Source of the DNA: Owenia fusiformis
Taxonomy: Eukaryota
Direction: 5' to 3'
DNA: 64,000 bases
NCBI GenBank assembly: GCA_903813345.2
Contig: CAIIXF020000001.1
Span: 9,672,001-9,736,000 of the forward strand
Part shown: positions 1,931 through 55,244 of the stretch, one piece after another
Position numbering within the stretch: position 1 is the first letter of the stretch
Layout: each line of letters opens with the position of its first letter
The notes under the pieces: generated by a model
What the model was told of the DNA's origin: nothing
The model's input: the letters and a program-made list of their open reading frames with translations, nothing else
The model's database searches: none
Made by a program: the position numbers and the translations under genes

Positions 1931-4584
1931 GACTGGCCATATAAATAGAATTCACAACGAAACCCTAATTAACTCATAAATAATTTGCGAACAAACTATA
2001 TCTCTATTCTTATTCAACAAGGTTTGATTCGAAAGCACATACTTAATGATCAATTAATAAAGTTAATCCATAAAAAATAATAACAGCAACGGGCGAAACA
2101 TGAATGTCATAAATGTCATATAAAGGTAACGGTGGCGCCAAGCTTACACGATTACACTACCACGGTCATGGCAAGCATTGCAATATAACGGAGCATTGTC
2201 GCGGTTATACCAGGCTTTCACGATAACACTACCACGGTCATGTCAGGAATCTTGCGCTACTAAAAAGACTGAATAACATGGTGACAGTTACGCCAGGCAT
2301 TAGTCTTGCAGTAGATAGGGTCTCTAGACAAGACTCAATGAACACTACAGTCTGTTAACTGTTAAAAATAACTAGAAATCGAAGATTGCAAGCAATCTTA
2401 AGGAGGCCCCGACCTTTTGACCTTTTGGAGTTCAGCAGGTCGAAGGTCACCGAAGGTCAACCAAAGGTCGGAGGTCAAAAGTAAGGACATATTTGAGTTC
2501 CTGAGATCTTGTAGATGATTTTTAAAAAAAAATCTGGTTTATTTGAAGCAAGTTGAAAAATGACCGATTTTTGCCGATTTTTGACGTCAAATATCTCAAA
2601 AACGGTAAAAAATTAACGCGTACATATAGTGAGCAATTTGTAGAGAATGCTTATATCTAGTTACATTTTAATTCATCGCAAGAAATAATGAAGTATGAGG
2701 ACGAAATCTGAGAAACTTAGAAAACACAGTTTGTGATCTTGTTTGATGACCTTGACCTTTGACCTTAAAAATTTTACTTTTTTAGACCTCAATATATCTT
2801 TTCTGATTGAATAAACTTTAATTTGAATCCAAGAAATCAATTTAAAAAATCAACTTTTTTTACCTTTCGAAGGTCACTGAAGGTCAAGTAAAGGTCAAAG
2901 GTCAAAACTAAGGTCAGATTTGAGTTCCTGAGATCTTGTAGATGCATTTTAAAAAAAAGTTTGGTCAATTTAGAGCAAGTTGAAATTTGACCTTGAAAAA
3001 TTTCGAAATTTGACCTTTTTTCAGTTTTTGAGTTCTAATATCTCAAAACTGGAGCAAAATTTTAATAAATTGTCAATTGCTAATATGTGTAGAACCTTAA
3101 GATGAATATATATTCTGACTTTCAGTAAAAAAAATTGATTTGTAGTCTCCAATTTTGAGAAACTTAGAAAACACAGTTTGTGATTTCGTTTGATGACCTT
3201 GACCTTTGACCTTGCAAATTTTACTTTTTTAGACCTCAGGAGGTCTCTTGTGAATAAATATACCTAAATTTGAATCCAGAAAATCGATTTGAAAAATCAA
3301 CTTTTTTGACCTTTCGGAGGTCACTGAAGGTCAACCAAAGGTCAAAGGTCAAAAGTAAGGTCAGATTTGGAATCCTGAGAATTTGTAGATGAGTTTTTAA
3401 AAAAAATTTGGTCAATTTGAAGCAAGTTGAAAAAAGACCTTTTTTGACCTTTTTTTGACCTTCAATATCTCAAAATCTAGGCAAAATTTCTCTAGACGGC
3501 AAAAGGTTAAGACTAATAGAATCCTAATATCTATCTGTATGCAAAAATTCAGCCAAAAATATTGAAGTGTAGTGTCAGGATTTGAGAAACTTAAAAAAAA
3601 CTTAGATTTGACCAAGATTTTGACCTTTGACCTTGACCTAGATAAAAATTCCTTTCCCGCCAAGTTCAGCCTAGGTCCCTAGTAGGGTTATGTAGTAGCT
3701 AGCTGAAAGCTAGTTGGAAGTAGGAGAAAAAGGTTTAGGAAGAATAAATAAAGAATAACTAGATGTATAAGATTGCAAGCAATCTTACGGAGGCCCCGTA
3801 GGCTTTTTGAACATTTAAAGGTCAGCCAAAGGTCAAATCTTAAATACAAGGTCATATATGAACTCCAGGCATCCTGTAGATGATTTTTAAAAAAAAGTTT
3901 GGTCAATTTGAAGCAATTGGTGCAGAATTTTAATAGATAATCAATTGTTAATACGTGTAAAACCTTTAGAGGAATATATATCCTGACTTTAATTCAAAAA
4001 TATTGATTTGTAGTCACAAACTTTGAGAAACTTAGAAAACACAGTTTGTGATCTTGTTTGATGACCTTGACCTTTGACCTTGAAAATTTTACTGTTTTAG
4101 ACCTCAGTATATCTTTTCTGATTGAATAAATCTAGATTTGAATCCAGAAAATCAATTTGAAAAATCAACTTTTTTGACCTTACAAAAGGTCACTGAAGGT
4201 CAACTAAAGGTCATAGGTCAAAACTAAGGTCAGATTTGAGTTCCTGAAATCTTGTAGATGCTTTTTAAAAAAAAGTTTGGTCAATTTAGAGCAAGTTGAA
4301 ATTTATCCTTGAAAAATTCCGAAATTTGACCTTTTTTCAGTTTTTGAGTTCTAATATCTCACAACTGGAGCAAAATTTTAATAAATAGTCAATTGCTAAT
4401 ATGTGTAGAACCTTTAGAGGAATATATATTCTGACTTTCAGTAAAAAAAATTGATTTGTAGTCTCCAATTTTGAGAAACTTAGAAAACACAGTTTGTGAT
4501 TTTGTTTGATGACCTTGACCTTTGACCTTGCAAATTTTACTTTTTTACACCTCAGAAGGTCTTTTGTAAATAAATGTACCTAAA

Positions 4585-6862: not shown

Positions 6863-7345
6863 TTTGAATCCAGAAAATCGATTTGAAAAATCAACTTTTT
6901 TGACCTTTCGGAGGTCACTGAAGGTCAACGAAAGGTCAAAGGTCAAAAGTAAGGTCAGATTTAGAATCCTGAGAACTTGTAGATGAGTTTTAAAAAAAAA
7001 TTTGGTCAATTTGAAGCAAGTTGAAAAAAGACCTTTTTTGACCTTTTTTTGACCTTCAATATCTCAAAATCTAGGCAAAATTTCTCTAGACGGCAAAAGG
7101 CTAAGACTAATAGAAGACTAATATCTATCTGTACGCAAAAATTCAGCCAAAAATATTGAAGTGTAGTGTCAGGATTTGAGAAACTTGAAAAAAACTTACA
7201 TTTGACCTAGATTTTGACCTTTGACCTTGACCTAGATAAAAATTCCTTTCACGCCAAGTTTAGCCAAGGTCCCTAGTAGGTGCATATAGTACATAGTTGA
7301 AAGGTAGTTGGAAGTAGGAGAAAAAGGTTTAGGAAGAATAAATAA

Positions 7346-8815
7346 CTAGATTTTGGAAATTGAACGAAGTTCAATTTCAGACTCCAGATCTAGACTTTTT
7401 TTAGCCGAGTCATCCAGAATAAGCCGAGTCATCCAGAATAAGCTGAGTCATCTAGAAAGAGATGGATAAATAAAATAGGAAGGTAGGATAGGATAGAATA
7501 GGAAAGAACGATAGGATAGAATAACAAAGAAGGATAGGATAGAATAGAACAGGAAGAAAGGATAGGATAGGATAGGAAGGAAAAGATATGAGGGAAGGAT
7601 AGATAGGAAGGATAGGGTAGGATGAGAAAGGAAGGATGGATGAATTTTTCAATATTTTCTTCTCTACTCTTGACTTTCTATCAGGATACCATCAGATCGA
7701 TTTTTCTCGAAATTTCAAAACGCTATCACTTCCGAACCGGAAGTCGGATCGAAATTTGGTTTGCAGATTCGGATTCCTGACAAAATTCTACCCCTAATTC
7801 ATAACTCATACGTTAAATATGGAGATTTTTTATTTTGACCTACTTTTCGGACACGCCATAACTTCCGCACCGGAAGTCGGATCGAAATTTGGTTTGCAGA
7901 TTCGGATTCCTGAGAAAATTCTATACTTAATTCATAACTCAAACGTCAAATTTGGAGAACTTTTTATTTTGACCTACTTTTCGGACACCATATCTCAAAA
8001 GTGGGTCAAAATACTTTCTGACGGCAAAAGGCTAACACTATTAGCATATTCTTGGCTACATGTATACACAATTTCGAAGAATATAATTAAAGTGTAGTGT
8101 CAGAATCGAAAAAATAAGGAAAACCTATGAATTTGACCTAGATTTTGACCTAGGCATTTCGGTGTCCAAATTGTGAAGCAAGTAGGCTTTTAAGGTCCCC
8201 TTCTTTTAAAGGCTTTGATTATATGAAGCTGAACTCAGTCTATATTCCGTATTTTTCACTTCAAAAAAATATTTTTTCCCATTGACTTAACATGGGCACC
8301 AAATTTAGCGATTTTTGAGTTTTCAAAACGCCATAACTTCCGGACCGGAAGTCAGATCTAAATTTCGTTTTCAGATTCGGAATCCTGAGAAAATTTCCTA
8401 TAAGAGTAATATCCTGGACATTTGATTCGGAGAACTTTTTTTTGGACCTCGTTTTCGGACACTGATATCTCGAAATCGGTTTGAGATATCAAAAAACTAA
8501 ATCGACCCTGGGTTTCCTACTTTTTTATAAGGAACACAATGAAAAAAACCCGGATAGAAAATATTGAAGGACGACCGAGAAAATCGAAAAAAGTGACAAA
8601 GTACTGGATTTGACCTAGTTCTTGACCTTTGACCTAGATAAAAATTTGACCCAATTTCCGAGGAACTAGATTCTGGACCTAAATTGACCAAATGACTGAC
8701 TTTACTAAAAACCTTATGGTTATTGAGAAAACTGGTTTAGAATAATAATAATAAGAAGAATAAGAATAAGAAAACTGGCGAAAACAATAGACTCCAGATT
8801 TCATCTGGAGTCTAA
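7346..8815 (-). mobile_element. Helentron/DINE-1-like element, family B copy 1
   Basis: CTAG, hairpin GAAATTGAAC-GAA-GTTCAATTTC, subterminal AGACTCCAGA; 5' hairpin AGACTCCAGAT-TTC-ATCTGGAGTCT then (TAA)n. Contains a GGATA-type tract and repeats with ACTTCCG/CCGGAAGT. Confidence 0.82.
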
Positions 8816-8830
8816 TAATAATAATAATAA

Positions 8831-10820
8831 CTAGACTTTGGAAATTGAACGAAGTTCAATTTCAGACTCCAGATCTAGACTTTTTTTAAGCCCAGTCATC
8901 TAAAATAAGCCGAGTCATCCAGAATAAGCTGAGTCATTCAGAATAAGATGGATGGATAAAATAGGAAGGTAGGATAGGATAGAATGGGAAGGAACGATAG
9001 GATAGAATAAGAAAGAAGAATAGGATAGAACAGAATAGGAAGAAAGGATATGATAGGAGAGGATAGGAGAGGATAGGAAGGAAAGGATACGAAGGAAGGA
9101 TAGATAGGAAGAATAGGATAGGATCAGATAGGAAGGATGGATGAATTTTTCAATGTTTTCTTCTCTACTCTTGACTTTCTATCAGGATACCATCAGATCG
9201 ATTTTTCCGAAATTTCAAAACGCCATAACTTCCGAATCGGAAGTCGGATCTAAATTTGATTTAAAGTTTCGGATTCCTGACAAAATTCTACCCCTTATTC
9301 ATAACTCATACGTCAAATTTGGAAACTTTTTATTTTGACCTAGTTTTTGGACACGCCATAACTTCCGAACCGGAAGTCGGATCGAAATTTTAATTGCAGA
9401 TTCGGATTCCTGACAAAATTCTACACCTAATTCATAACTCATCCGTTAAATTTGGAGATTTTTCTTATTTTGACCTACTTTTCGGACACCATATCTCAAA
9501 AGTGGGTCAAAATACTTTCTGACGGCAAAAGGCTAACACTATTAGCACACTATTGGCTACATGTATACACAATTTCGAAGAATATAATTGAAGTGTAGTG
9601 TCAGAAACGCAAAAATAAGGAAAACCTTTGAATTTGACCTAGATTTTGACCTAGGCATTTTGGTGTCCAAATTTTGAAACTAACTGGCTTTTGAGGTCCC
9701 CTTCTTTTGAAGGCTTTCATTAAATTAAGCTGAACTCAGTCTATATTTCGTATTTCTCACTTCAAAAAAATCTTTTTTTCCCATTGATTTAACATAGGCA
9801 CCAAATTTAGGGATTTTTGAGCTTTTAAAACGCCATAACTTCCGAACCGGAAGTCGGATCAAAATTTGTTTTGCAGATTCGGATTCCTGAAAAAATTCTA
9901 CCCCTATTTGATAACTCATACCTTGAATTTGGAGAACTTTTTATTTTGACATACTTTCTGGACGCCATTTTTCAAAATCGGTAAGAGTAATCAAAAAACG
10001 GATGGACACATATGAAAGGGCTGTTTCTAAGCTACATGATGAAAAAAGATGAAGACGTTTCGATAAATAACAACGAAGATAATAGACAGAAGGTTGAAAA
10101 TGTAAGATTTGACCCAGTTCTAGGATAAGATAGGATATAGAATAGGAAGGAAGGATAGGATAGGAAGGAAGGGATAGGAAGGAAGGATAGGATAGGAAGG
10201 AAGGGATAGGAAGGAAGGATAGATAGGAAGGATATGATCAGACAGGATAGGAAGGAAGGATGGATGATTTTTTCTATATTTTCTTCGCTACTCTTCACTT
10301 TCTATAAGGATATCATCAGATCGATTTTTCTTGAAATTTCAAAACGCCATAACTTTCGAATCGGAAGTCGAATCGAAATTTTGTTTGCAGATTCGGATTC
10401 CTGAGTAAATTCTACCCTTAATTCATAACTCAGATGTTAAATTTGGAGAACTTTTCATTTTGACCTACTTTCTGGACGCCATATTTCAAAATCGGTAAGC
10501 GTAATCAAAAATCTAATGTCATATCTTTGCTTTGGCTTTTTTTAAGCTACATGATGAAAAAAAGATTTAGGAGTTACGATAAACAACGAAGAAGATAAAT
10601 GACAGAATGTTGAAAATGTAAGATTTGACCTAGTTCTTGACCTTTGACCTAGATAAAAATTTGACCCAATTTCCGAGGAACTAGATACTGGACATAAATT
10701 GACTGACTAATGATCTTTATTGGAAGCCTTATGGTTATGGAGAAAACTGGGAAAGAATAATAAAGAATAATAAGAATACTGACGAAAACAATAGACTCCA
10801 GATTTACATCTGGAGTCTAA
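8831..10820 (-). mobile_element. Helentron/DINE-1-like element, family B copy 2
   Basis: Same termini as copy 1 and directly adjacent across a (TAA)n tract; two GGATA tracts (about 8945-9143 and 10123-10266). Confidence 0.82.
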
Positions 10821-10884
10821 TAATAATAAGAATATCTATAAAATTAATAGGAGGCCCCCCGTTGGGGCCTCCTAATAATAATAA

Positions 10885-13800
10885 CTAGACTTTTGAAGAT
10901 TGCAAGCAATCTCACGGAGGCCCTCTTAGGCATTTTTGACAATTTGAAGGTCAACTAAAGGACAAATATCAAATCTGAGGTCAGATGTGAACTCCTGAGA
11001 ACTTTTAGATGACTTTCAAAAAAAGATTTTGTCAATTTGAAGCGAGTTTAAATTTGACCTTGAAAAATTTCGAAATTGACCTTTTTCAACTTTTGAACTC
11101 TTATATCTCAAACTGGGACAAAATTCTATTAGATAGTCAATTGCTAATATGTGTACAACCCTTAGAGGAATGTGTATATTTCGACTCCGGATTAAAAATA
11201 TTGGTTTGTAGTCGAACTTTGCGTAACTTAGATAGCACAGTTTGTGACCTAATTTCATGATTTTGACCTTTGACTTTGAAACGTTTTACATTTTTAGACC
11301 TCAGTAGGACTTTTGTAATTAAGCTCACCTAAATTTGAATCCAAAGACTCAATTTGAAAAATCAACTTTTGTTACCTTTCGAAGGTTATCGAAGGTCAAT
11401 TAAAGTTCAAAGGTCAAATCTGAGGTCAGATTTGGACTCCTGGGAACTTGTAGATGAGTTATAAAAAAAGATTTGGTCAGATTGAAGCAAGTTGAAAAAT
11501 GACCTTTTTTGACCGTTTTTTTACGTCAAATATCTCAAAAACGGTAAAAATTTAATGCTGACATATAGTGAACAATTTGTAGAGAATACTAAAATGTAGT
11601 TTCAGTTTAATTCATCGCAAGAAATAATGAAGTATAAGGACAAAGTTGAGAAACTTGAAAAAAATTTAGATTTGACCTAGATTTTGACCTTTGACCTAAT
11701 TTGATAACCGTGACCATTGACCTTGAAAATGTTACTGTTTTAGAGCTCAGTAGGTATTTTATGATTAGGCTAACCCTAAATACTGAAATATGAATCCAAA
11801 CACTCAATTTGAAAAATCAACTTTTCTGACCTTTCGAAGGTCACTGAAGGTCAACTAAAGGTCAAATGTCAAATCTGAGGTTAAATATGAACTCCTGAAA
11901 AGTTGTAGATGATTTTTAAAAAAAAGTTTGGTGAATTTGAAGCAAGTTAAAATTTGACCTTATAAACTTTGAAAAATTGACCTTTTTCAGTTTTTGAGCT
12001 CTTATATCTCAAAACTGGGAAAAAAATTTAATAAATAGTCAATGACTAATATGTGTAGAACCCTTAGAGAAATGTATATCTTGACTTTCAATTAAAAATA
12101 TTGATTTGTAGTTTTGAACTATGAGAAACTTAGATAGCACAGTTTGTGACCTAATTTAATGACATTGACCTTTGACCTTGAAATTTTTACTTTTTTAGAC
12201 CTCAGTAGGCTTTTTGTAATTAGACTGACCTAAATTTGAATCCAAAAACTCAATTTGAAAAATCAACTTTTCTGACCTTTCGAAGGTCACTGAAGGTCAA
12301 CGAAAGGTCAAAGGTCAAATTTGAAGTCAGATTTGGACTCCTGGGAACTAGTAGATGATTTTTAAAAAACAATTTGGTCAGATTGAAGCAAGTTGAAAAA
12401 TGACCTTTTTTGACCGTTTTTTGACGTCAAATATCTCAAAAACTGTAAAAATTTAATGCTGACATATAGTGAACAATTTGTAGAGAATACTTAAATGTAG
12501 TTTCAGTTTAATTCATCGCAAGAAATAATGAAGTATAATGACAAACTTGAGAAACTTGAAAAAAATACAGATTTGACCTAGATTTTGACCTTTGACCTAA
12601 TTTGATAACCGTGACCCTTGACTTTGAATATTTTACTGATTTAGAGCTCAGTGGGTCTTTTATGATTAGGCTTATCTTAAATTTGAAACCAAAAACTCAA
12701 TTTGAAAAATCAACTTTTCTGACCTTTCGAAGGTCACTGAAGGTCCACTAAAGGTCAAATGTCAAATCTGAGGTTAAATATGAACTCCTGAGAAGTTGTA
12801 GATGATTTTAAAAAAAAAGTTGTGTGAATTTGAAGCAAGTTAAAATTTGACCTTATAAACTTTGAAAAATTGACCTTTTTCAGTTTTTGAGCTCTTATAT
12901 CTCAAAACTGGGACAAAATTTTAATAAATGGTCAATGACTAATATGTGTAGAACCCTTAGAGAAATGTATATCTTAACTTTCAATAAAAAATATTGATTT
13001 GTAGTCTTGAACTATGAGAAACTTAGATAGCACAGTTTGTGATCTAATTTGATGACCTTGACCTTTGACCTTGAAATTTTTACTTTTTTAGACCTCAGTA
13101 GGCTTTTTGTAATTAGACTGACCTAAATTTGAATCCGAAGACTCAATTTGAAAAATCAACTTTTCTGACCTTTCGAAGGTCACTGAAGGTCAACTAAAGG
13201 TCAAATGTCAAATCTGAGGTTAAATATGAACTCCTGAAAAGTTGTATATGATTTTTAAAAAAAAGTTTGGTGAATTTGAAGCAAGTTTAAATTTGACCTT
13301 ATAAACTTTGAAAAATTGACCTTTTTCAGTTTTTGAGCTCTTATATCTCAAAAGTGGGAAAAAAATTTAATAAATAGTCAATGACTAATATGTGTAGAAC
13401 CCTTAGAGAAATGTATATCTTGACTTTCAATTAAAAATATTGATTTGTAGTTTTGAACTATGAGAAACTTAGATAGCACAGTTTGTGACCTAATTTGATG
13501 ACTCTGACCTTTGACCTTGAAATTTTTACTTTTTTAGACCTCAGTAGGCTTTTTGTAATTAGACTGACCTAAATTTGAATCCGAAGACTCAATTTGAAAA
13601 ATCAACTTTTCTGACCTTTCGAAGGTCACTGAAGGTCAAGTAAAGGTCAAAGGTCAAATCTGAGGTCAGATTTGGACTCCTGGGAACTTGTAGATGATTT
13701 TTAAAAAAAAAATTGGTCAGATTGAAGCAAGTTGAAAAATGACCTTTTTTGACCGTTTTTTGACGTCAAATATCTCAAAAACGGTAAAAATTTAATGCTG

Positions 13801-14121
13801 ACATATAGTGAACAATTTGTAGAGAATACTTAAATGTAGTTTCAGTTTAATTCATCGCAAGAAATAATGAAGTATAATGACAAACTTGAGAAACTTGAAA
13901 AAAAACTTAGATTTGACCTAGATTTTGACCTTTGACCTTGACCTAGATAAAAAATATTTTCCCCCCTATTCCAGCCCAGGTGTCTAGTAGGAGCATATAG
14001 TAAGTAGTTGAAAGCTAGTTGGAAGTAGGAGAAAAATGCTTTGGAAGAATAATAAATAAAGAATAAAGAATAAAGAAAAGCTACAAAAGCTATAGGAGGC
14101 CCTTTCAGGAGGGCCTCCTAA
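10885..14121 (-). mobile_element. Helentron/DINE-1-like element, family A-related copy 3 with about 7 tandem monomers
   Basis: CTAG plus GATTGCAAGCAATC hairpin and GGAGGCCCTC; 5' hairpin AGGAGGCCCT-ttcagg-AGGGCCTCCT at 14095-14119. The monomer anchor GAAGGT recurs at 11381, 11836, 12282, 12729, 13175 and 13621. Confidence 0.82.
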
Positions 14122-15829
14122 TAATAATAATAATATCTATAAAATTAATAGGAGGCCCCCCGTTGGGGCCTCCTAATAACAACATAACTTCGACATATGA
14201 GTGTTACCTGATGAATGGGACCCTCACGTGCCTTCCAAATGGTAGTACACGAACTCTAGTGTAACTACATCAGCTTATCTTTCCGTCCGATCAACAATAA
14301 GTACAGTTATACAAGAAATGTAAACGAAGTGAAAATATTCCCAAAGATTTTCCGAAAGGCATGGCATTCCGGAAGTTATGATACGTTATGGTGTCACTAC
14401 GGTAAATCATTGAAAAATATTGAAAAAAATCACAAAATTCAAGTTCTGGTGTGAGGTTCCATATCCATCCGCTAAAAGGTATGACACTATAAAGTCCATT
14501 TACAAATTTGTGGTTTTGTTCTAAATAACGCCATAGTTGGCTTCTAGGGTACCTAGTATGCCACTATTTCATCGTATCAAAATAAAGAGGAGGAGTTCAA
14601 CTTTCATTTGAATTACGAAAATAGCGATGTAGGTCAAAATAGTTCCGGCGTGAGCATGTTTACTACGCGTTTGCCCGTCATCTCAGAAATAAGGAAATGG
14701 TAGCAAACGCGAGTTACAATAAATGTACGCTGATATCTCAAAAAGTAACCTGCCTCCCTATAATTTGATGTAGATCAATCGAACCCCTATATGAACAGGT
14801 ACATTTTGATATATAACACTATGGGGGGGGTAAGCGTTTTATAGTTGATCACAAACGCCATATGTGCAAAGTATTGTTCTGAATTTTCGAATTTGGTGTT
14901 GGATTACAATACTCACACCTTCTGGGGTACATATTTCCATTTTTGAACGAATTAGCCCATACAATGACTATATTTTTGCAATATCCTATACATAACCTTC
15001 ATCTTGACGCTATATTTAACATAAGGTTTGCGTCTCGATTTTTAAATATCACTACGCCAACATAGGGACTCATTTTTATGTAAAATCCCTGCTTCAACGA
15101 TGAAAATTAACGAATATTCTTGAGATTTTTTTCTAAAAATGGCACATTTAGAAAGTACTTGGCCTCAGCTTTACATACATACCTCAAATGGCCATAGTGC
15201 ATACACTTAAACCTACTATACACACCATTGAAGTTGGCAAGAATATGGTCCCGTAAACAGGAACTACTTTATTCGTTAATTTTCATCGTTGAAGCAGGCA
15301 TTTTACCTAAAAATTAGTCCCTATGATGGCGTAGTGATATTTAAAATCTAGACGCAAACCCTATGTTAAATATTTTATTTATTTTCTTTATTTTGATACG
15401 ATGATACTAGGTACCCTAGAAGCCAACTATGGCGTTATTTAGAACAAAACCACAAATTTGTTAATGGACTTTATAGTGTCATACCTTTTAGCGGATGGAT
15501 ATGGAACCTCACACCAGAACTTGAATTTTGTGATTTTTTTCAATATTTTTCAATGATTTACCGTAGTGACACCATAACGTATCACAACTTCCGGAATGAC
15601 ATGCCTTCGAAAAATTTTGGGGAATATTTTCACTTCGTTTACATTTCTTGTATAACTGTACTTATTGTTGATCGGACGGAAGAATAAGCTGATGTAGTTA
15701 CACTAGAGTTCGTGTACTACCATTTGGAAGGCACGTGAGGGTCCCATTCATCAGGTAACACTCATATGTCGAAGTTATAGTTATAGTTATTCACTGCTAG
15801 GTCATTCTGACCTGTAGCCGGTCTTACCG

Positions 15830-17440: not shown

Positions 17441-17587
17441 TTACCGTTAAGTTATGTTGTTATTATTTTTAACAGTTAACAGACTGTAGGCACTGCTTCG
17501 CCAAGCTAGATCTGTGCCCATGAATATATTATGAATTGAAACGTTATAATGGTCTTCAATGGGATTTTCCACAATCTTGACCCATAG

Positions 17588-18049
17588 TAGTGTTGTTGCG
17601 ATGTGCCATAATCGTACATCGATGCATCGGCAATTTTCAGTAGTAAACAACGATGCACATCGCGATGTACATCGAGAAAAAGTTCGAGAAAAGTGCACTG
17701 AAATACCGAACGCTAATGCACTAAAATATCGAACAGAACAAATTAATAAGAGTACGCTGGTACATCCGGGAACATAGTAACGGTGAAATGAAAGTAAAGT
17801 AATTTTTTGATGGTTCATTTCGACTAGCTAAAACAGTTTTAAAGCGAAAGAATATCAGAAAACATTTGAAAATGAAATAAGACATGAAAAAAGGTAAGCA
17901 ATTTGAGTCAAAATAAGATAAGAAAGGGCGATTTTTAGCAAATTAAAATTTTTTAAAAACATCGATGTTTTGTTTCAGACATCGATGCATCGCCAGAACC
18001 AGCTTTGGCGATGTATATCGCGATGTATCGATTAATCGCGACAACACTA
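17588..18049. mobile_element. hAT-like MITE
   Basis: TIR TAGTGTTGTTGCGAT / ATCGCGACAACACTA, perfect 8-bp TSD ACCCATAG, internal ATCGAT/CATCGCGATG motifs. Copies at 22277-22738 and 26966-27427. Confidence 0.9.
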
Positions 18050-31392: not shown

Positions 31393-31420
31393 TATGTGAA
31401 TATTAGTATTATGGAAATAA

Positions 31421-41100: not shown

Positions 41101-44100
41101 GCTCGTAGCAATAATTTTTTTAAAATTGATATTATATGTGTATTCCCGCTATTTATATTTATTATAAATAAAATTCAAGATATTATTTTGTTGCAATGAA
41201 GCAATATGATTTAACCTCATTTTTCTAAAAAGGTTTTTGAGAGAAAGTTCAATACTGGTGGTAGTAAATAGCAGACTCAGCCAATGGAAGAGTGAGAAAC
41301 AATCAAATGATATAATATAAATGAATATCATCCTCTTATTTCAGGCAATGATGTCATCAGATGGCCACGATCATTCCGATGGGGAAGGACATGACAAATC
41401 AAATGCATGGAAGGGCATGATGGCACTCGGTGGACTATATTTCTTCTTCCTAATGGAACGTATCATGGCCATATGTACCGATATGAGGCGAAACAGGAAA
41501 AACAAGAAAACAAGAGTGAAGGTAAATTTTATATTCAAATTAATTTTATGTTTCTTGAGTCTTAACTGTTCATTTCTAGATAAATCACTTAATGGATTTA
41601 TTTGATATGTTTCTTGTTGTGGATTGGAAATCTAGAACTGATTTGTTCTGATTGGGTATCCAAGCCTGAGTGAATTTTAAATGGCCATTTAGTTAGCAAA
41701 TGTTACGCCTTCGTGTATAGGTCACATATAGTGATGTAATGTGCTACTCAAGTATTCACTGTTATTAGGGATTTAAGCCCTGGTCTCAGTGCAATGTGGA
41801 ATGACCATTTCTAGAAGGTGTTGATTTCCAAAACTTGCACAAGATGTCGAGCACATTCCTGAAAGGAATGGTCATTACACAGCGTTGGGTCTTGGGCATT
41901 TTACTAATTGTAAAATATTTTTTCCAAAATCATCTTAAAGATACGAAATCACCAAAAGAACATATTTTCAATGAAACCTTTTGCAAGGGTCAAGCTGGCA
42001 AAGTATCAGTTTCAATTTGCAGAGTCCAGTCATCACCATGCCAACCATTTAACTAGTAACCTTGAGTTTGTTATTGGTTATATAACGGAATGCAGTTAGT
42101 GAAATCGCATGTTCTGATTTGCCAAGCTATATGTGGATGATTGTTTTAGTCTCAAACTTTCTTTCGGATGACAGTCAGTCTGTAACAAATGACAGGTGTT
42201 GACATTTTGCATGGTAATGCCTTGTTGCAATTATTGTTACACAAGATTGTTTTGAAAGATCCTGATGTTCAGGCATCTATTTTCCAGGAAGCTGACACAA
42301 GTAAAAGCTCAGGTACAGAGCTGCAAGCTATAGGGGCTAAACTCTCTGAATATCAGGCACCAGCAAAGGATTGTGAAGACTTCATCATGGTGGTACATGG
42401 AAATAAAGGTATGCATATAATGTATAACAACAGTAACAACTTTCTTAAACAACCTATATTTCTTATTTATTTAGTGAGAACATTTCAGAACCTTGTTATT
42501 ATTATTATTATTATTATTATGTCACCACAAGAAGTGTTTACATATTGTAATAGTCTCCACTTTTTGGGAATGGTGTTTGGTATTCGGCAGATGGTGTTCG
42601 GCGTTTGTAATAAATATGGCAAGTGGTGACATTTCGCATATTAATGCTTACTCTCCTTAAAATAAATAAATATAGGTTGTGAGGAAAATTGTTTTGATGT
42701 TGATTATAATCGAACCTGACAGAAGTGCTTAGGACATAATGTAGTGATCTCCCCAGGATTTTTTCTCAAATGGGTGCAAAATTCTCATATTCACAATTCA
42801 GACCAAAATTGATCAAAATATCAATTTTTCATGATTTTTCTCATTTTCAAGTGGGTGCAAATGGATTTTCAGGTGGGTGCAAAATCTCAAGTGGGGGCTG
42901 CGCCCACTTGCTTTAATGCTGGGGAGATCACTGTAATGCATGTTGTGATTGTAATGCATGTTCAAGTCTAGTCAAGCTAGCTAAAATACTGAAGAATTGA
43001 GTAAGGATTGTTTTCAGTTTTCATGATGTTGTTATGTATAATTGAGTACCTAGTTGTAGTTTATTCGCATGTTTGCATACTTGTTGTATTATTTGTTTTA
43101 GTTTCAAGCTGTTCTTGTTAACAAGTTACTCAGTTCTGAATTTTTATTCTAATAAAACTCAAGATTGATATTACTATGTCTAACTTACTCGACCAATTGC
43201 CTTATTTTTTCAGTAAATATGAATTTATTAGGGAGGTCAAGCTACATGTATTTTAATACAACTTGAACTTGAACATGTAGAATTATGGTCCTATAGGGTT
43301 AGCTCTCCCCTTGGAAGTAATTACTTGCCCAATTGAGTATAAAGGTATAAGGGAAATAGTTGAAATTAGGTCCCTGGAAAAATCAATTGTGGGAGGAGTC
43401 GAGGACAGAATTCCTTGTGTGTCATAATATTACACATTCCATACAAGTTCTCTTAAAAACATGTAGCCTAACCAATTACCTCCCTATTATTAAGATCAGA
43501 ATAAGAGAATGTGTCTCTTTTTGATTGAATTGTATGTAAGTGCATGTTGATATTGATATTTATTACTTTACCCAGAACAACTTAGCATAAATCACGAAAA
43601 TAAAATCACCTGAGTAAATTAGTCTCTGTTTCAAGGATGATTTGAACTGTTTTTTTATTGCATGATTTTTATTATAGATGAAGAGAATAATTATAAAGAA
43701 AAACATAGATTACGCTATAGTGGAATATTTGCTCAGCGATTTGAGATTGAACCAGGTATTTGATCCAGATGTCAGCACCTTCTCATGCTTGCCTCATTGC
43801 TATGACAATATTCCAATACTATCGCTATGGTTGCCACTATTCTAGTGATACAGAAATATTGTCATTCTGGAAAATAAAGCTTTTTATTGACAAAACAAAT
43901 ACTAAGGATGATTAACATAGTCATATAACAAACATTGTAATTTCATTATATTGGTATATTTCAAGCTGACATGGGTATGTATGTACAGACTGCAGATATA
44001 CATGTACCTCTAATGTGCACTGCACATGGGTTATTGAAACACTATATTACATCACTTTCTTAAATGCAAAACAACTCACTAAATCTATTTTCTTTCAAGT

Positions 44101-47100
44101 AAACCACCACCATAACAATTAGTATAAGGTCTCTGGGAAGAACTCTGCAATAAAATGCATTATACATCAGTTAATATTCTCTGTAGCTTTTCTATATTGT
44201 ATGAAGGTTTTGGCTGGTACATAGAATGACGTGTTATTCAGTATATACTAGAATACCCGACTCTATGCCATTTGGATAATATGATATTGCTTCATTTATT
44301 AAAATACTTAGCTAACTTATTTAGTAAGCATAGAGCATGCTTAATAACTTATAACGCATATAACTCCATTTTGAAATTATCTTCTCCACAATTATTTTTA
44401 TGTCACCACCAAAAGTGGTGACACAAAAGTGGTGACATATTGTTATGGTCTCCGTTTTTTTGCGACGGCGGTTGGTGGTTGGCGTCCGGCGGTTGGCGTC
44501 CGGCGTCTGTAACAATTTCTTACAACTTCCTATAACTTAACAAATACTGTTTAGACTGACTTCAATTTTTTTCTAAATCATCTACATGTTCTCAGAAGTT
44601 CAAATCTGACTTTAGATTTGACATTTGACCTTCAATGACCTTCTCAAGGTCAAAAAGGTCTTTTTTCAACTTGCTTCACATTGAATAAATTTTTTTTCAA
44701 AATCATCTACATGTTCTCAGAAATTCAAATCTGACTTTAGATTTGACATTTGACCTTCAAATCTGACTTAAGATTTGACATTTGACCTTCAATGACCTTC
44801 TCAAGGTCAAAAAAGGTCAAAAAGGTCTGTTTTCAACTTGCTTCAAATTGACTAAATTTTTTTTTCAAAATCATCTACATGTTCTCAGAAATTCAAATCT
44901 GACTTAAGATTTGACTTAAGATTTGACATTTGACCTTCAATGACCTTCTCAAGGTCAAAAAAGGTCAAAAAGGTCTGTTTTCAACTTGCTTCAAATTGAC
45001 TAAAAAAAATTTTCAAAATCATCTACGTGTTCTCAGAAATTCAAATCTGACTTTAGATTTGACATTTGACCTTCAATGACCTTCTCAAAGTCAAAAAAGG
45101 TCAAAAAGGTCTTTTTTCAACTTGCTTCAAATTGACTAAATTTTTTTTTCAAAATCATCTACATGTTCTCAGAAATTCAAATCTGACTTTAGATTTGACA
45201 TTTGACCTTTAATGACCTTCTCAAGGTCAAAAAAGGTCAAAAAGGTCTGTTTTCAACTTGCTTCAAATTGACTAAAAAATTTTTTCAAAATCATCTACGT
45301 GTTCTCAGAAATTCAAATCTGACTTTAGATTTGACTTAAGATTTGACATTTGACCTTCAATGACCTTCTCAAAGTCAAAAAGGTCAAAAAGGTCTTTTTT
45401 CAACTTGCTTCAAATTGACTAAATTTTTTTTCAAAATCATCTACATGTTCTCAGAAATTCAAATCTGACTTTAGATTTGACATTTGACCTTCAATGACCT
45501 TCTCAATGTCAAAAAAGGTCAAAAAGGTATTTTTTCATCTTGCTTCAAATTGACTAAATTTTTTTTCAAAATCATCTACATGTTCTCAGAAATTCAAATC
45601 TGACTTTAGATTTGACTTTAGATTTGACATTTGACCTTCAATGACCTTCTCAAGGTCAAAAAAGGTCAAAAAGGTCTTTTTTCAACTTGCTTCAAATTGA
45701 CTCATTTTTTTTTTCAAAATCATCTACATCTTTTCAGAAGTTCAAATTTGACTTTACAAGTTCTCAGAAATTCAAATCTGACTTAAGTTTGAACTCATAA
45801 TATTGTGAGCAACTAGGTGGTGACATTTTGTCATGTTAATGCCTTGTTTTACCTTTCATGTCTCCTGCTTTTTTAATCCCAAAGAACTTGTCTGATAGGG
45901 ATATCGTGAAGTCCTTCGTCCCGTTTTCCAGCATAAGAGTCTTGTTCCTAAATTCCATCCTTTAAACCCAGGCCTCCAGAATTCGTACCTCATTCTTCAA
46001 GAAAAAGGAAGGAATGTAGTAAATGATTTCTGGAGGATGCTTAAATCCTTAAATAGAAATATAATATGTAGTAAAATAAAAAATAAAATTAAATACTTGA
46101 GCTCACTTCGATGAAAAAAGAACAATAAGTCAACTACATGTAAATAAGTCTACTACAGCTTTGTAAATAGAATTCAGTTCTGTATTTTTGTATCTAAATC
46201 ATCATTCTATTTCCAGCTGTGAGAGGCTATGCAGATGAAGTACATAACGATGAGTATGGTGCAGATTGTGAGATAGAAGAAGTTGTAGGACATAGTCATC
46301 AGCAGTCCCATGGACACGGACATGGGCACAGTCATGGTCCTATTCCCACTACAGTCAGTGCAATTGCCTGGATGGTCATCATGGGAGATGGCCTGCATAA
46401 CTTTTGTGATGGTCTTGCCATAGGTAAACAATAAAACGATGCTGCATGATAAATGATTCACACGTTGAATGTCACATTTGACAAATCGGAAGTTTTCTGT
46501 TGAAGATGTCAATTTTTGCCCACCCTGTATAATAATAGAGTGGCTACCCAGTAACAACCTTTTTAGTAGACATTTTGGTGCCTTTCAGGGTTTTTAACTT
46601 TTCAAAAAAATTATATATTTTCTTATCTTGGAAAGTAGTGATCTTACTTCTATAAACATTCCTTCAGCTTTTTTCCATTTTATGAAATGATATTCACAAC
46701 TTATAAGTATAATACATTTATCATGAATTTGAATCCCCGCATGATTTTAATCAAACTAAAATTGATACATGAAATCATAGGTACATTTGTATCACTTCAG
46801 GTGCTGCGTTTGCCAATAGTATGAGTGGAGGTCTTAGCACTTCAGTTGCCGTATTTTGCCATGAATTGCCACATGAATTAGGTAGGTACTCAATAGGGTT
46901 TTCAGTATTTCGATAGTACAGGGCGATTCCAAATTTTTGATAAAATGCTCTCTTTTGTTTTTGGATGATATTTGCTTGTTTTGTGTATAAAAATCCAGGT
47001 TCCCCTGAGAGGAAATATCCCATAATTTATAGCTTCATTTATGAACTTTTGGGTGTTTCCCCATTTGTTTCCTAAAAACCTCCAGTGTATTTGTAATATG

Positions 47101-49231
47101 ATTAATTATCCCATCGAACGAAGTTCGGAGGGATATAGGGAACGCCTCCGTCCGTCCGTCCGTCCGTCCGTCCGTACGTCCGTCCGTCCGTCCGTCCGTA
47201 CGTACGTCCGTCCGTCCGTCCGTCCGGGCAATAACTCAAATACCGTTGGCCCGATTTTGTTCATATTTTGTACACATATACCCTATGGGGGTAGAAGTTC
47301 TGCTCGAAAGCCGATTTTCAAAATGGCCGCTCATTTCAAAATGGCGGCCATTTTAGTGCCGAATTTACAGTAATTTAGGTGCAATATGTAAAACTGTAAT
47401 AGCAATACGTTTTAGATGTAAAAAAATTATATAGGACATTAATAAAGCTAGAAATGTAGATATTAAAGAAGCACATGGCAGCCATCTTGAAAAATGGCGG
47501 TCTTTACTCGTTATTTTACGATTTTTGCTGTAACTCGAAAAGTAGTGGAGCGATTTTGTTCATATTTGGTATGTGAATACTATAAACATTGCACACTGTC
47601 TAAAGACACTTTTAGTAGAAGGTGGCCATTTTGAAAAATGGCCACCATTTTTCAAAATGGCCGCCATTTTAATGTATTTTACCATTTGAAAAGTAGTGGA
47701 GCGATTTTGTTCATATTTGGTATGTGAATACTATAAGCATGACACACTGTCCTATGACACTTTTGGTAGAAGGCGGCCATTTTGAAAAAAATTTTTTCAA
47801 AATGGCCGCCATTTTAATGTATTTTACCATTTGAAAAGTAGTGGAGCGATTTTGTTCATATTTGGTATGTGAATACTATAAGCATGACACACTGTCCTAT
47901 GACACTTTTGGTAGAAGGCGGCCATTTTGAAAAAAATTTTGAAAAATGGCCGCCATTTTAACGTATTTTACTATAACTCGAAAAGTAATGAAGCGATTCT
48001 GTTCATATTTGGTATGTGAATACTGTAAGTATGGCACACTGTCTAATGACACTTTTGGTAGAAGGTTGCCATTTTGAAAAATGGCCGCCATTTTAACGTA
48101 TTTTACTATAACTTGAAAAGTAGTGGAGCGATTTTGTTCATATTTGGTATGTGAATACTATAAGCATGGCACACTGTCTAATGACACTTTTGGTAGAAGG
48201 TTGCCATTTTGAAAAATGGCCGCCATTTTAACGTATTTTACTATAACTTGAAAAGTAGTGGAGCGATTTTGTTCATATTTGGTATGTGAATACTATAAGC
48301 ATGGCACATGGTCTAATGACACTTTTGGTAGAAGGCGGCCATTTTGAAAAATGGATGCCATTTTTGCTATATCCTTTGTTTGTAAAAATGCCATCCATGG
48401 CTGTTCGATGGGATTTGCTACGCTTTGGCGTTGCCGTTGTTCTGGTTTGAAAATGTGAAGTAGAATGCGAAATCTGGCTTATCAAAAAGGATATCCTATT
48501 AACAACATGTCCAAACTGCTCCAACATCTCGGCATGTAGTAAACTTGAACATATGAATTATCTGTGATTTTCAGGTGATTTCGCCGTGCTCCTGAGAGCT
48601 GGTATGTCTGTTAAGCAAGCTCTCACATACAACATTGTCTCATCGGTGCTCTGTTTCGTGGGTATGCTCATAGGTGTCTCGATTGGCAATGTCGGGGATG
48701 CCAGTCTTTACATCTTTGCAATGATGGCTGGTGTGTTCATATATATAGCCTTAGTTGATATGGTAAGTGGTTTTATTTTGCACAAACAAATATACATTTA
48801 CTGTCATAATTATTTCAACACCTTAAAATTTGTCTAATAAAGTCAATTTCTGTCTTAGTGGTTTTATCTTTGAATGTTGGTGAAATTGTGTCATGATTGT
48901 GTCAGTGTCCTATTTTACATGGTCAAAATACCAACCAATTTGGTGATGATATAATCCTAATCTCCAGCAGACCAAGCAGTTAGTCTGGATTTGAACTAAA
49001 AAACACTGAATAACTTTTAACTGAACTGAATATATTTACATATTGAACAATTAATAGAATGTGATATATTTTTCCTTCCAGCTTCCGGAGATGAATGCAG
49101 TAACACCAAAAGCTGGTGAAAATCCATTTTGTCATTTGATATTCCAAAACTTTGGTTTACTTACTGGCATCAGCATCATGGCTCTAATAGCCATGTTCGA
49201 GGACAAAATCACAGTGAATGTAGGATCCTAG
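38183..49231 (+). CDS. SLC39A10: LIV-1 subfamily ZIP zinc transporter (ZIP10/ZIP6/fear-of-intimacy-like), spliced, about 787 aa
   Basis: Nine GT-AG coding exons with consistent phases: 38183-39238, 39495-39708, 39971-40140, 41345-41521, 42288-42408, 46217-46423, 46801-46881, 48575-48762, 49082-49231 (TAG); total 2364 nt. The protein has a signal peptide, His-rich ectodomain, PAL-type motif ([13 protein letters not shown]), [18 protein letters not shown], His-rich cytosolic loop, TM4 [14 protein letters not shown] and the LIV-1 signature [15 protein letters not shown]. The invertebrate gene is probably co-orthologous to SLC39A6 and SLC39A10. Confidence 0.95.
38636..38850 (+). repeat. Coding minisatellite encoding (T-H-N-H-D-D/E)n
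   Basis: Repeated GACACCCA(T/C)AATCATGAT units of 18 or 27 nt inside the first coding exon of the ZIP gene. Confidence 0.9.
42515..42652 (+). mobile_element. Short degenerate family C Helentron-like element
   Basis: (TTA)n then ATGTCACCAC...GTGGTGACAT and hairpin GCATATTAATGC; another isolated 3' end lies at about 42192-42226. Confidence 0.65.
42742..42933. mobile_element. MITE with 5-bp TSD
   Basis: TAATG|TAGTGATCTCCCCAG...CTGGGGAGATCACTG|TAATG with internal TGGGTGC motifs; a diverged relative at about 61892-62176. Confidence 0.75.
44396..45848 (+). mobile_element. Helentron/DINE-1-like element, family C, with about 10 tandem monomers of about 120-130 bp (ZIP intron)
   Basis: 5' ATGTCACCACC plus inverted GTGGTGACA, a GGCGTCC/GGTTGG microsatellite, a tandem array at 44575-45790, 3' GGTGGTGACAT, short hairpin and T-run. 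Confidence 0.85.
47105..48448 (+). mobile_element. Helentron/DINE-1-like element, family D, with (CCGT)n and about 120-bp tandem monomers (ZIP intron)
   Basis: Subterminal IR ATCCCATCGAAC / GTTCGATGGGAT (48403-48414), (CCGT)n at 47146-47226, about 7 monomers with AAAATGGCCGCCATTTT, 3' hairpin ACGC-TTTG-GCGT. Confidence 0.88.
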
Positions 49232-52143: not shown

Positions 52144-53623
52144 TTAGACTCCAGATGTCAATCTGGAGTCTATTGTTTTTGCCAGTATTCTTCTTTATTA
52201 TTATTATTCTTCTACCTACGTTTTCTCCTTAACTAGAAGACATTGAGTCAAGTCCTGTATATGTTCAATTTAGGTCCAGTATCTAGTTTCTCGGAAATTG
52301 GGTCAATTTTTTATCTAGGTCAAAGGTCAAGAACTAGGTCAAATCTTACATTTTCAACATTCTATCAATTATCTTCGTCATTATTTATCAAAACGTCTTC
52401 GTCTTTTTTTCATCATGTAGCTTAGGAAAAGCCCTTTCATAAGTGTCCCTGTTTTTTTTTAATTACTCTTACCGATTTTGAAATATGGCGTCCAGAAAGT
52501 AGGTCAAAACAAAAGTTCTCCAAATTCAGGGTATGAGTTATGAATTAGGATTAGAATTTTGTCAGGAATCTGAATCTGCAAACCAAATTTTGATCCGACT
52601 TCCGGTTCGGAAGTTATTTCGTTTTAAAAGTTCAAAAATCGCTAAATTTGGTGCCCATGTTAAGTCAATGGGAAAAAAGATTTTTTTGAAGTGAAGAATT
52701 CGAAATATAGACTGAGTTCAGCTTAATTTAATGAAAGCTTTTAAAAGAAGGGGACCTAAAAAGCCATCTAGCTTCAAAATTTGGACACCAACATGCCTAG
52801 GTCAAAATCTAGGTCAAATTCAAAGGTTTTCCTTATTTTTGCAATTCTGACACTACACTTCAATAATATTCTTTGAAATTGTGTATACATGTAGCCAAGA
52901 GTGTGCTAATAGTGTTAGCCTTTTGCCGTCAGAAAGTATTTTGATCCACTTTTGAGATATGGTGTCCGAAAAGTAGGTCAAAATAAAAAGTTCTCCAAAT
53001 TTAACGTATGAGTTATGAATTAAGGATAGAATTTTCTAAGGAATCCGAATCTGCAAACGGAATTTCGATCCGACTTCCGGTCCCGAAATTATGGCGTGTC
53101 CAAAAAGTAGGTCAAAATAAAAGTTCGCCAAATTTAACGTATGAGTTATGAATTAGGGGTAGAATTTTGTCAGGCATCCGAATCTTTAAATCAAATTTCG
53201 ATCCGACTTCCGGTTCGGAAGTTATGGCGTTTTGAAATTTCGGAAAATCGATCTGATGGTATCCTGATAGAAAGTCAAGAGTAGAGAAAAAAATATTGAA
53301 AAATTCATTCATTCTTCCTATCTGATCCTATCCTATCATATCCTTCCTATCTATCCTTCCTTCGTATCCTTTCCTTCCTATCCTTCCTATCATATCCTAT
53401 CATATCCTTTCTTCCTATTCTGTTCTATCCTATCCTTCTTTCTTATTCTATCCTATCGTTCCTTCCCATTCTATCCTATCCTACCTTCCTATTTTATCCA
53501 TCCATCTTATTCTGGATGACTCAGCTTATTCTGGATGACTCGGCTTATTTTAGATGACTGGGCTTAAAAAAGTCTAGATCTGGAGTCTGAAATTGAACTT
53601 CGTTCAATTTCCAAAGTCTAGTT
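52144..53623 (+). mobile_element. Helentron/DINE-1-like element, family B copy 3
   Basis: Reverse orientation relative to 7346-10820: AGACTCCAGAT-gtca-ATCTGGAGTCT start, (TCCTA)-type tract at 53310-53505, GAAATTGAACTTCGTTCAATTTC hairpin, CTAGTT end. Confidence 0.85.
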
Positions 53624-53783: not shown

Positions 53784-55244
53784 TTATTAGGAGGCCCCAA
53801 CGGGGGGGCCTCCTATAGATTTTATAGATATTATTTATTATTCTTTATTATTATTTATTCTTCTCTGCACTTTTTCTCCTACTTCTAACTAGATTTCAAC
53901 TATCTACTATATGAACCTACTAGGGACCTAGGTTGAACTTACCGGGAAAGGAATTTTTATCTAGGTCAAGGTCAAAGGTCAAAATCTAGGTCAAATCAAA
54001 GTTTTTTCTAAGTTTCTCAGATTTCGTCCTCATACTTCATTATTTCTTGCGATAAATTAAAATGTAACTAGATATAAGCATTTCCTACAAATTACTCACT
54101 ATATGTTCGCGTTAATTTTTTACCGTTTTTGAGATAATTGACGTCAAAAAACGGTAAAAATTGGTCATTTTTCAACTTGCTTCAAATTAACCAATTTTTT
54201 TTTTAAAAATCATCTACAAGTTCTCAGGAACTCAAATCTGACCTTAGTTTTGACCTTTGGTTGACCTTCAGTGACCTTCGAAAGGTCAAAAAAGTTGATT
54301 TTTCAAATTGATTTTCTGGATTCGAATTTAGGTACATTTGATCACAAAAGACCCACTGAGGTCTAAAAAAGTAAAATTTGCAAGGTCAAAGGTCAAGGTC
54401 ATCAAACTAAATCACAAACTGTGTTTTCTAAGTTTCTAAGTTTTGGTGACTACAAATCAATATTTTTTCATGAAAGTCAGGATATATATTCCTCTATAGG
54501 TTCTACACATATTAGCAATTGACTATTCATTAAAATTGTGTACCAGTTTTGAGATATTAGAACTCAAAAACTGAAAAAAGGTCAAATTTCGAAACTTTTC
54601 AAGACTAAATTTCAACTTGCTTCAAATTGACCAAATGTTTTTTAAAAATCATCTACAAGTTCTCAGGACCTCAAATCTGACCTTAGTTTTGACCTTTGAC
54701 CTTTGGTTGACCTTCAGTGACCTTCTAAAGGTCAAAAAAGTTGATTTTTTAAATTGATTTTCTGGATTCAAATTTAGGTATATTTGATCACAAAAGACCC
54801 ACTGAGGTCTAAAAAAGTAAGACTTGCAAGGTCAAAGGTCAAGGTCATCAAACTTAATCACAAACTGTGTTTTCTAAGTTTCTAAGTTTTGGTGACTACA
54901 AATCAATATCTTTTCATGAAAGTCAGGATATATATTCCTCTATAGGTTCTACACATATTAGCAATTGACTATTTATTAAAATTGGGTACCAGTTTTGAGA
55001 TATTAGAACTCAAAAACCGAAAAAAGGTCTAATGTTGAAATTTTTCAAGGTCAAACTTCACATTGCTTCAAATTGACCAAACTTTTTTTTTAAAATCATC
55101 TACAAGATGCCTGGAGTTCATATATGACCTTGTTTTTAAGATTTGACCTTTGGCTGACCTTTAAATGTTCAAAAAAGCCTACGGGGCCTCCGTAAGATTG
55201 CTTGCAATCTTTATACGATTGCTTGCAATCTTATACATCTAGTT
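53784..55244 (+). mobile_element. Helentron/DINE-1-like element, family A copy 4
   Basis: TTATTAGGAGGCCCC...GGGGCCTCCT start; about 3 monomers; GGGGCCTCC, duplicated GATTGCTTGCAATC hairpin, CTAGTT end. Confidence 0.85.

Follow-up and report, generated by a model that had tools for sequence, protein, structure and literature searches.

A 64,000-bp stretch of the Owenia fusiformis genome (contig CAIIXF020000001.1, positions 9,672,001 to 9,736,000 of the forward strand; the window below) holds copies of four repeat families, A to D. Judged by their anatomy these are non-autonomous Helentrons (HINEs), rolling-circle elements whose short central monomers carry words resembling the binding sites of host transcription factors (TFs), namely nuclear receptor (NR) half-sites (AGGTCA/TGACCT), ETS sites and YY1 sites. 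The copies are given below by position in the window, with subterminal inverted repeats abbreviated to subTIR and with half-site spacings written as direct (DR) or everted (ER) repeats.

2371..3757, minus strand: family A HINE copy, 3' end CTAGT at 2371, 3' hairpin at 2382-2398; 446-bp units, each of three sub-monomers with NR half-sites; without its own 5' hairpin, the neighbouring copy abutting the microsatellite tail.
3758..4584, minus strand: family A copy, 5'-truncated, 3' hairpin at 3769-3785.
6863..7344, minus strand: family A fragment, whose own 5' hairpin is probably that at 10848-10874, pushed away by two family B insertions.
7345..8815, minus strand: complete family B HINE, subTIR AGACTCCAG, (GGATA)n microsatellite; 133-bp monomers with an ETS-like inverted pair and one AGGTCA half-site.
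8830..10820, minus strand: family B HINE with an internal duplication.
10884..14176, minus strand: long family A HINE of about six 446-bp units, with two 5' hairpins (14093-14120 and 14149-14175).
44398..45847, plus strand: family C HINE, subTIR ATGTCACCACC; 136-147-bp monomers homologous to A sub-monomer 1, with NR half-sites mostly as DR4 and ER5; inside the ZIP transporter gene region.
47106..48446, plus strand: family D HINE, subTIR ATCCCATCGAAC, (TCCG)n microsatellite; 135-145-bp monomers with three YY1-like sites each; in an intron of the ZIP zinc transporter gene.
52144..53622, plus strand: complete family B HINE.
53787..55243, plus strand: complete family A HINE, subTIR GGAGGCCCC, 3' hairpin, CTAGT end.

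The ZIP zinc transporter gene (38168-49230), between whose exons the C and D copies lie, was recognised by a PF02535 match on the exon at 48577-48762, and a long His/Asp-rich frame at 38168-39388 probably belongs to it.

Across about 30 loci per family the elements consisted of a T-rich start, a subTIR within a hairpin, a microsatellite, the central monomers, a 3' subTIR and a stem-loop, and ended in CTAGT, CTGGT or CTTGT. The HINE anatomy was taken as defined in PMC4067079. In all four families the subTIRs, different in each as listed, lay within a few bases of the 5' end, whereas tens of bases separated them from the 3' end; those of A and B measured 9 bp by eye, as against the 12-15 bp given for mite HINEs, and the 3' stem-loop was clear in A, B and D and short and imperfect in C. 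TT followed all 30 of the D and all 43 of the B 3' ends, 34 of 37 A ends and 20 of 28 C ends (T in 28 of 28 for C), and a D copy inside a monomer array (L308) sat between two T residues with no duplication when compared by eye with the neighbouring empty monomers. Coding capacity was absent, as none of the 15 stop-to-stop frames of at least 120 amino acids (aa) in the window fell in an A-D copy. The genome searched (499.5 Mb) gave 63 matches to the Helitron Rep model PF14214, 35 of them in stop-free frames of at least 2,000 aa, and EFQMRGSPH was present in all 20 Rep sequences retrieved, the S between G and P of motif 2 being the Helentron signature (PMC4067079). The non-autonomous rolling-circle identity proposed in the initial annotation is thus upheld by the termini, the TT target and the presence of a Helentron-type Rep in the genome.

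Intact Helentron-type replicase frames were many, reached about 3,400 aa, were diverse (47-98% identical) and clustered on small contigs (C13, the start of C3, C809 and others; L161-L180) and near a contig end, possibly as subtelomeric arrays. In the flanks of one replicase gene (3.2 kb downstream and 4.7 kb upstream, its own ends being uncertain) no terminus could be matched to A-D; the upstream side held another HINE, and on the downstream side lay a 154-bp array free of the motifs. First-look candidates, which are not copy numbers, amounted to 4065 for D, 3456 for A, 2441 for B and 3036 for C, and the families, some of whose copies reach 99% identity, are abundant as well as young. In a random sample of 400,000 bp (40 stretches picked regardless of content) A-D occupied 7,855 bp (about 2%), family B having no match there.

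The words assigned to each family in the initial annotation were recovered. TGACCT was counted 142 and AGGTCA 105 times in the window (sum 247), in agreement with the richness described for A and C. ACTTCCG stood just before CCGGAAGT at all five positions named for the family B pair array (7737, 7870, 8345, 9370 and 9847, the third having been placed at 8346), and AAAATGGCCGCCATTTT, the repeated word of D, was present in six copies spanning 47338-48229, five on the plus strand (47654-48213) and one on the minus strand (47338). The family D copy also held 23 occurrences of GCCATNTT and 6 of GCCGCCATTTT. Because tandem amplification raises the count of any word, counts were made in one non-redundant consensus unit per family against 300 dinucleotide shuffles, which gave 10 NR half-sites in A (0.22 expected), 4 in C (0.04), 2 ETS sites in B (0.02) and 3 YY1 sites in D (0.01). 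The motif excess proposed for the family consensuses is therefore real and strong in all four families, far beyond chance even inside a single repeat unit and not a product of tandem amplification alone. Half-sites in A were spaced as DR1 (8), DR6 (5), ER5 (5), DR4 (4), DR5 (4) and DR0 (2), in C as DR4 (12) and ER5 (5) and in B as DR6 (4) and DR1 (2), a mixture that indicates no single receptor. YY1, NR and ETS factors are presumably present in this host.

The families were less separate than their words had suggested. A sub-monomer 1 and the C monomer were 73-84% identical over 150-180 bp (Z 14-23 with the motifs masked), A sub-monomer 3 matched a piece of family B (Z 8-11, motifs masked), and a whole B element carried 8 NR half-sites and 5 ETS sites. 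Since A and C have a monomer in common, A and B share a piece and B carries both NR and ETS sites, the window appears to hold about two independent motif origins, one NR-type and one YY1-type, with ETS sites added in B. The idea of a different motif for each family was thus correct as to the motifs themselves and failed where A and C share one monomer and B has more NR than ETS sites. That of homotypic single-motif arrays was not borne out, given the mixture in B and the recombination of modules between families. The elements are modular, as had been suggested: at L362 an A-type NR module (82-86% identical to the window copies) was fused into a YY1-type array, and L024 had the same junction, so that swapping of modules between families at short homologies is documented for one junction at two loci. 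In the upstream array at L308, YY1-like and TGACCT words stood together in one unit of about 158 bp.

In the 400-kb sample AA[AG]ATGGC occurred 134 times (111 outside A-D) against 36-50 in shuffled sequence, AGGTCA 290 times (211 outside A-D) against 153-181, and CCGGAAGT 5 times against 1-4, while seven words neighbouring AA[AG]ATGGC had 14-59 occurrences each. The 131 YY1 sites of a flank test in this sample were reduced to 86 by family deduplication. Outside the searched word these were enriched for C at -1 (34), G at +9 (28), C at +10 (36), C at +11 (28) and A at +12 (42), with P values of 9e-8 to 5e-4 for the C/G positions (background 0.17) and of up to 1e-3 when +12 A is included; T at +13 was not significant. 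These flanks agree with the published YY1 site, GCCGCCATTTTG or GTCGCCATCTTG (PMC11602158) and CGCCATNTT (PMC7481187), and putative sites matching GCCATNTT with GCC/CGC flanks occurred both in family D and among the deduplicated sites.

When HINE ends were sought de novo under strict criteria, most A and C copies escaped and few new families were gained, so extra families were chosen by eye from motif contexts. Many YY1-like sites were seen by eye in further repeats whose ends are of HINE type and whose units measure 127-157 bp (L126, L128, L129, L136/L147 and L140), and in other families such sites also stood alone or formed direct repeats. YY1-like sites were present in each of the monomers D, E, F, G and H, and their motif-masked Z was below 3 in 20 of 20 directed comparisons; a further monomer, I, was related to D. 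The chance of the 14-letter YY1 pattern is 2.7e-6 per 150-bp monomer. Genome-wide, same-strand pairs of this pattern numbered 1683 at a period of 134-164 bp, compared with 24 at 74-104 bp and 36 at 199-229 bp and none for the reversed pattern, and at least six monomer types could be told apart by eye among 100 matches listed. NR pairs numbered 3238 (control 12), almost all C-type among 100 matches listed, and ETS pairs 1032 (control 152). As several monomer types carry YY1 pairs, with NR pairs nearly all C-type and ETS pairs all B-like among those listed, YY1 is the recurrent motif here and the strongest signal, NR recurs less, and ETS has a single origin.

Similar words were also seen in other settings. 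An element bearing terminal inverted repeats and not obviously a HINE (L124, 6530-7620) has a TGACCT cluster, so NR arrays are not limited to Helentrons. At L133 (400-1300) the inverted arms each combine an ETS-like with a YY1-like word, the two lying about 20 bp apart. In the window, inverted arms of about 405 bp at 14184-15778 are 95% identical and hold one CCGGAAGT each; they belong to another abundant repeat with 1975 first-look candidates. The word GGGTGGGGC is one that we take to resemble a KLF/SP site. In the Pacific oyster it lies beside a TGACCCC-GGGGTCA palindrome in the Cg170-type monomers of clusters CL1/CL2 (PMC7492417 supplement).

The YY1-pair pattern was found in at least 127 stretches of metagenome contigs. 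The 126 foreign loci fell into 73 spacer clusters, 66 of them tandem at an identity of at least 65%, and comparison with the own-genome loci gave one short match only (42 bp), so the YY1 motif appears to be present in about 70 unrelated monomer types from public contigs. Prokaryotic genomes (596 billion bases) held 53 stretches, 41 in two Sedimenticola bins and most others on short bin contigs; with matches so few and clustered, the foreign stretches are probably carried-along animal DNA. That two Sedimenticola bins account for 41 of the matches to an animal-type repeat pattern suggests host DNA in these bins; the spacers there (L309-L359) were nearly all mutually unrelated. A filter for HINE ends on both sides was passed by 4 foreign loci (0-2 in shuffles). 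The cluster tests were run without L204 (a 23-bp minisatellite), and 2 of 179 spacers, which contained N, were excluded in a later run, which gave a similar result for the metagenome clusters. Among the 72 clusters picked on YY1 alone, TGACCT/AGGTCA was present in 9 against 3.6 expected (P 0.02) and ACTTCCGG in 2 against 0.1 (P 0.005), while 11 of 11 control TF words were unenriched. The view that the motifs are not accidental was thus strengthened by the YY1 flanks, the recurrence in unalignable monomers, the spacing and the occurrence in other species.

In the same 72 clusters GAGATAT/ATATCTC, a word that does not resemble a TF site, was present in 13 against 1.2 expected. In unrelated monomers (L181-L306) it either followed the YY1 site by about 15-19 bp or preceded it by 24-36 bp, and a TTTTGGGGTCA-like word was the top de novo motif in the metagenome spacers. 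The enrichment of such a word, at fixed distances to either side of the YY1 site, would suit a reading in which the zinc fingers of the elements' own Rep-helicase, or another element protein, recognise the words in an iteron-like manner, their likeness to host sites being superficial, and so would the diversity of the genome's replicases. We regard it as improbable, since three separate words each fit a known host consensus, flanks included, and one array beside a replicase gene is without the words.

Arrays of Pacific oyster HINEs were searched in the array supplement of PMC7492417 (3.35 million characters). There TGACCTTG occurred 2059 and AAGGTCA 2263 times, 30 of 30 rows viewed belonging to cluster CL6, which has several NR half-sites per 146-bp monomer. 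The words ACTTCCTG/CAGGAAGT (753/715) were visible in CL3 monomers and GCCATATT/AATATGGC (744/889) in CL4, and the CgiSat21 consensus (PMC8268682 supplement) was likewise rich in AGGTCA. A single word has a 3-8% chance of presence in one of 13 monomers. Oyster families with NR, ETS and variant YY1 words are suggestive, from another phylum, of different motifs in different families, the part of that claim that rests on the variants being post hoc.

Anatomy, TT target, motif match, spacing, recurrence and module exchange were observed; binding by host proteins and an effect on mobilisation are inferred. Our preferred reading, to which we would give slightly less than an even chance, is that the monomers are selfish cis-modules whose host-factor sites serve the element's own spread. 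Autonomous Helentron Rep-helicases would move the HINEs in trans, each replicase presumably being paired with certain families. Each central monomer of about 135-160 bp carries a short cluster of putative host-protein sites, which thus recurs about once per nucleosome-core length; YY1 is the most robust of these, and NR half-sites or ETS sites replace it or accompany it. With host factors bound, a germ-line donor copy would stay open and its termini would be within reach of the replicase, and copies whose sites are intact would give rise to more daughters. The sites would then persist in source lineages and in monomers that have diverged widely, with most inserted copies decaying near-neutrally. 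Host-factor help at viral rolling-circle origins offers an analogy.

Conservation was followed in alignments (A 80, C 421, B 208 and D 120 monomers) with columns matched for base class and CpG, where variants shared by at least 5% represent source lineages and private substitutions were strictly defined. Columns with shared variants were rarer in motifs (ratios 0.68 in A, 0.32 in C, 0.63 in B and 0.30 in D; permutation P 0.057, 0.19, 0.049 and 0.024, combined 0.004, and 0.004 without C). Private substitutions in motifs relative to matched non-motif columns had ratios of 0.70 in A, 0.74 in C, 0.88 in B and 0.94 in D, none significant (P 0.12, 0.06, 0.39 and 0.45, combined 0.11). In a looser first pass total divergence was lower in the motifs of A (P 0.0002) and B (P 0.001) and not lower in those of C (P 0.11), and rare variants (below 5%) were fewer in the motif columns of A and D (P 0.0002 and 0.006). 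The comparison of motifs with spacers proposed in the initial annotation thus gave a divided answer, with shared variants spared and private mutations not clearly so. Equal decay of the two, named there as contrary evidence, is not decisive here because selection at the level of the element predicts near-neutral decay after insertion. We consider this conservation evidence moderate because the copies were the best-scoring per query, A and C are not independent, and the choice of noticed motifs carries a bias described below.

The private substitutions bear on whether the host has taken over the sites as a dispersed modular enhancer toolkit maintained by host selection. Heat-shock elements borne by Caenorhabditis Helitrons rewire genes (PMC6927752), and the private ratios below 1 in all four families and the scarcity of rare variants in A and D motifs point the same way. 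Under the stricter private definition significance was lost, purifying selection on the sites after insertion was not detected (a small co-opted subset would escape), and at about 2% of the random sample the A-D copies are too numerous for general host use to be likely. We therefore assign host maintenance little probability, although a few copies may have been co-opted; the host benefit implied by the term 'regulatory toolkit' found no support, and the conservation pattern sits more easily with selection among source elements than with selection by the host on copies already inserted.

The motifs form the arms of 17-bp palindromes in A, B, C and D, and folding is slightly more favourable for the A-D monomers than for shuffled versions (z -1.5 to -3.6). 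The words could be by-products: G+C-rich palindromes and 6-7-bp slippage repeats would have arisen from single-stranded DNA replication, template switching and tandem amplification, or descended from one old monomer, with the likeness to TF sites due to chance plus ascertainment. The near neutrality of private mutations, the relatedness of A, B and C and the one origin of ETS here would agree with this, and weakly common middle segments among the monomers (top expectation-maximisation motif log-likelihood 97 against 32-36 in the null) would allow deep common descent. The commonest palindrome variants break the pairing of one arm, and by eye no compensating change was seen among them, which weakens a reading based on hairpins alone; for monomers E and H folding was no more favourable than in shuffles (z 0.4 and -0.7). 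A by-product also leaves unexplained why a YY1-flanked site of 12-14 bp persists amid unalignable spacers and why YY1 sites occur singly or as direct repeats, and we think this explanation rather unlikely.

YY1/Pho acts with Polycomb, and COUP-TF or TR2/4-type receptors act with co-repressors. The sites might accordingly recruit repressive complexes, which would make insertions harmless and allow the element to persist. The lancelet YY1 protein binds GCCATCTTG in ProtoRAG termini and suppresses transposition (PMC7481187); in the window the C and D copies lie inside a host gene, and DR1-type spacing is the commonest in A (8). Such self-restraint predicts constraint after insertion, which was weak, and the families are young and abundant, so we hold it to be unlikely.

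Several observations weigh against sites that serve the element's spread. All 100 of the ETS pairs listed looked by eye like family B. Convincing whole HINEs were seen by eye at 2 of the 126 foreign loci (L215 and L233), a further 39 clusters from the prokaryotic collection were unenriched for NR (0.8 against 1.2) and ETS (0 against 0.2), and among 1817 hexamer classes in the metagenome clusters AGGTCA ranked 53 and CGGAAG 114. In the available oyster arrays the canonical YY1 words (47, 4, 69 and 3, against 37-66 expected) and ACTTCCGG (6) were at or below chance, and the ETS and YY1 variant words were picked after rows had been viewed. An array of fifteen 154-bp units directly 3' of an intact Rep-helicase frame held no YY1, NR or ETS word. 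The lineage test gave P below 0.05 for B and D only, total divergence in D motif columns was not lower in the first pass (P 0.62), and motifs noticed by a reader are biased towards conserved words. CpG in D motifs decayed like other CpG (0.031 against 0.031), so a bound protein would give most copies no visible protection.

Other features of the window included a 4,689-bp unit present three times (14303-28371) and 100.0% identical over 9,380 bp, which reflects either an error of assembly or tandem duplication in the very recent past. A 295-aa frame on the minus strand (31700-32587) with a weak RVT_1 match below cut-off is probably a fragment of a long interspersed element (LINE), and a G+C- and CpG-rich element at 60900-61600 has inverted ends and many CGGCCG/GAGCTC palindromes.

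HINE/DINE-1-like elements (PMC4067079) and the oyster Cg_HINE (PMC7492417) have the same subTIR hairpin, microsatellite, monomers of about 140-180 bp, stem-loop and TT target, and in Cg_HINE central repeats were likewise exchanged between flanks. The HINE papers treat the central repeats as satellite-like cargo, whereas the present monomers keep YY1-, NR- and ETS-like sites; 'transcription factor' had no occurrence in the main text of PMC7492417. Caenorhabditis Helitrons also carry repeated host TF motifs, namely heat-shock-element arrays (PMC6927752) and LSY-2/LSL-1 motifs (PMC8896005), and their authors speculate on a selfish, mobilisation-promoting origin. Those elements are annotated as Helitrons, and measurements there covered binding as well as gene induction, for a stress-inducible factor; here one putative site set is found per monomer of about 150 bp and recurs in unrelated monomers and species. 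By analogy the present elements would work like, without being, Helitrons with heat-shock elements or the monomers of the mouse LINE-1 Tf 5' untranslated region. YY1, NR and ETS factors are broadly expressed. HINEs need no transcript for movement, so the role of their sites would lie in access or replication and not in transcription. The LINE-1 Tf monomers have one GCCATCTTG-type YY1 site each in tandem, and synergy between monomers serves the element (PMC11602158); LINE-1 Tf is a retrotransposon promoter, whereas HINEs encode nothing. The YY1 site in lancelet ProtoRAG TR5 is a case from an invertebrate DNA transposon in which YY1 affects transposase loading and transposition, but ProtoRAG moves by cut-and-paste, has a single site per terminus and is reduced in transposition by YY1 (PMC7481187). 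In C. elegans the internal repeats of Helitron minisatellites that act as insulators through periodic A/T clusters (PATC) shape chromatin and were possibly retained selfishly (10.64898/2026.08.08.743475). The PATC model concerns DNA mechanics with a 10-bp periodicity and not short motifs, and single monomers of the present families gave no consistent 10-bp AA/TT peak.

The class is not new since TF-motif-carrying Helitrons are already known. No published report of YY1, NR or ETS motifs in HINE central repeats was found, most subscription journals lying outside the search, nor did the search find a published account of a recurrence of these few factors, at monomer spacing, in unrelated families and in different phyla. 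HINE central repeats are a main invertebrate source of dispersed satellite DNA. A more general and more doubtful proposal is that Helentron-type elements in many animals need a host-factor module for mobilisation, with one cluster of YY1 sites, or of NR or ETS sites in their stead, in each nucleosome-length monomer as a replication enhancer. If true, this need would explain why such elements carry satellite-like repeats of about 150 bp, why short boxes are conserved amid spacer turnover, and how nucleosome-sized monomers and TF sites arose in many dispersed satellites. A recurring set of host-factor sites kept along source lineages would also mean that about 2% of the O. fusiformis genome seeds thousands of potential YY1, NR and ETS sites, from which enhancers could arise, which could serve as decoys and which could distort the motif calls of chromatin studies.

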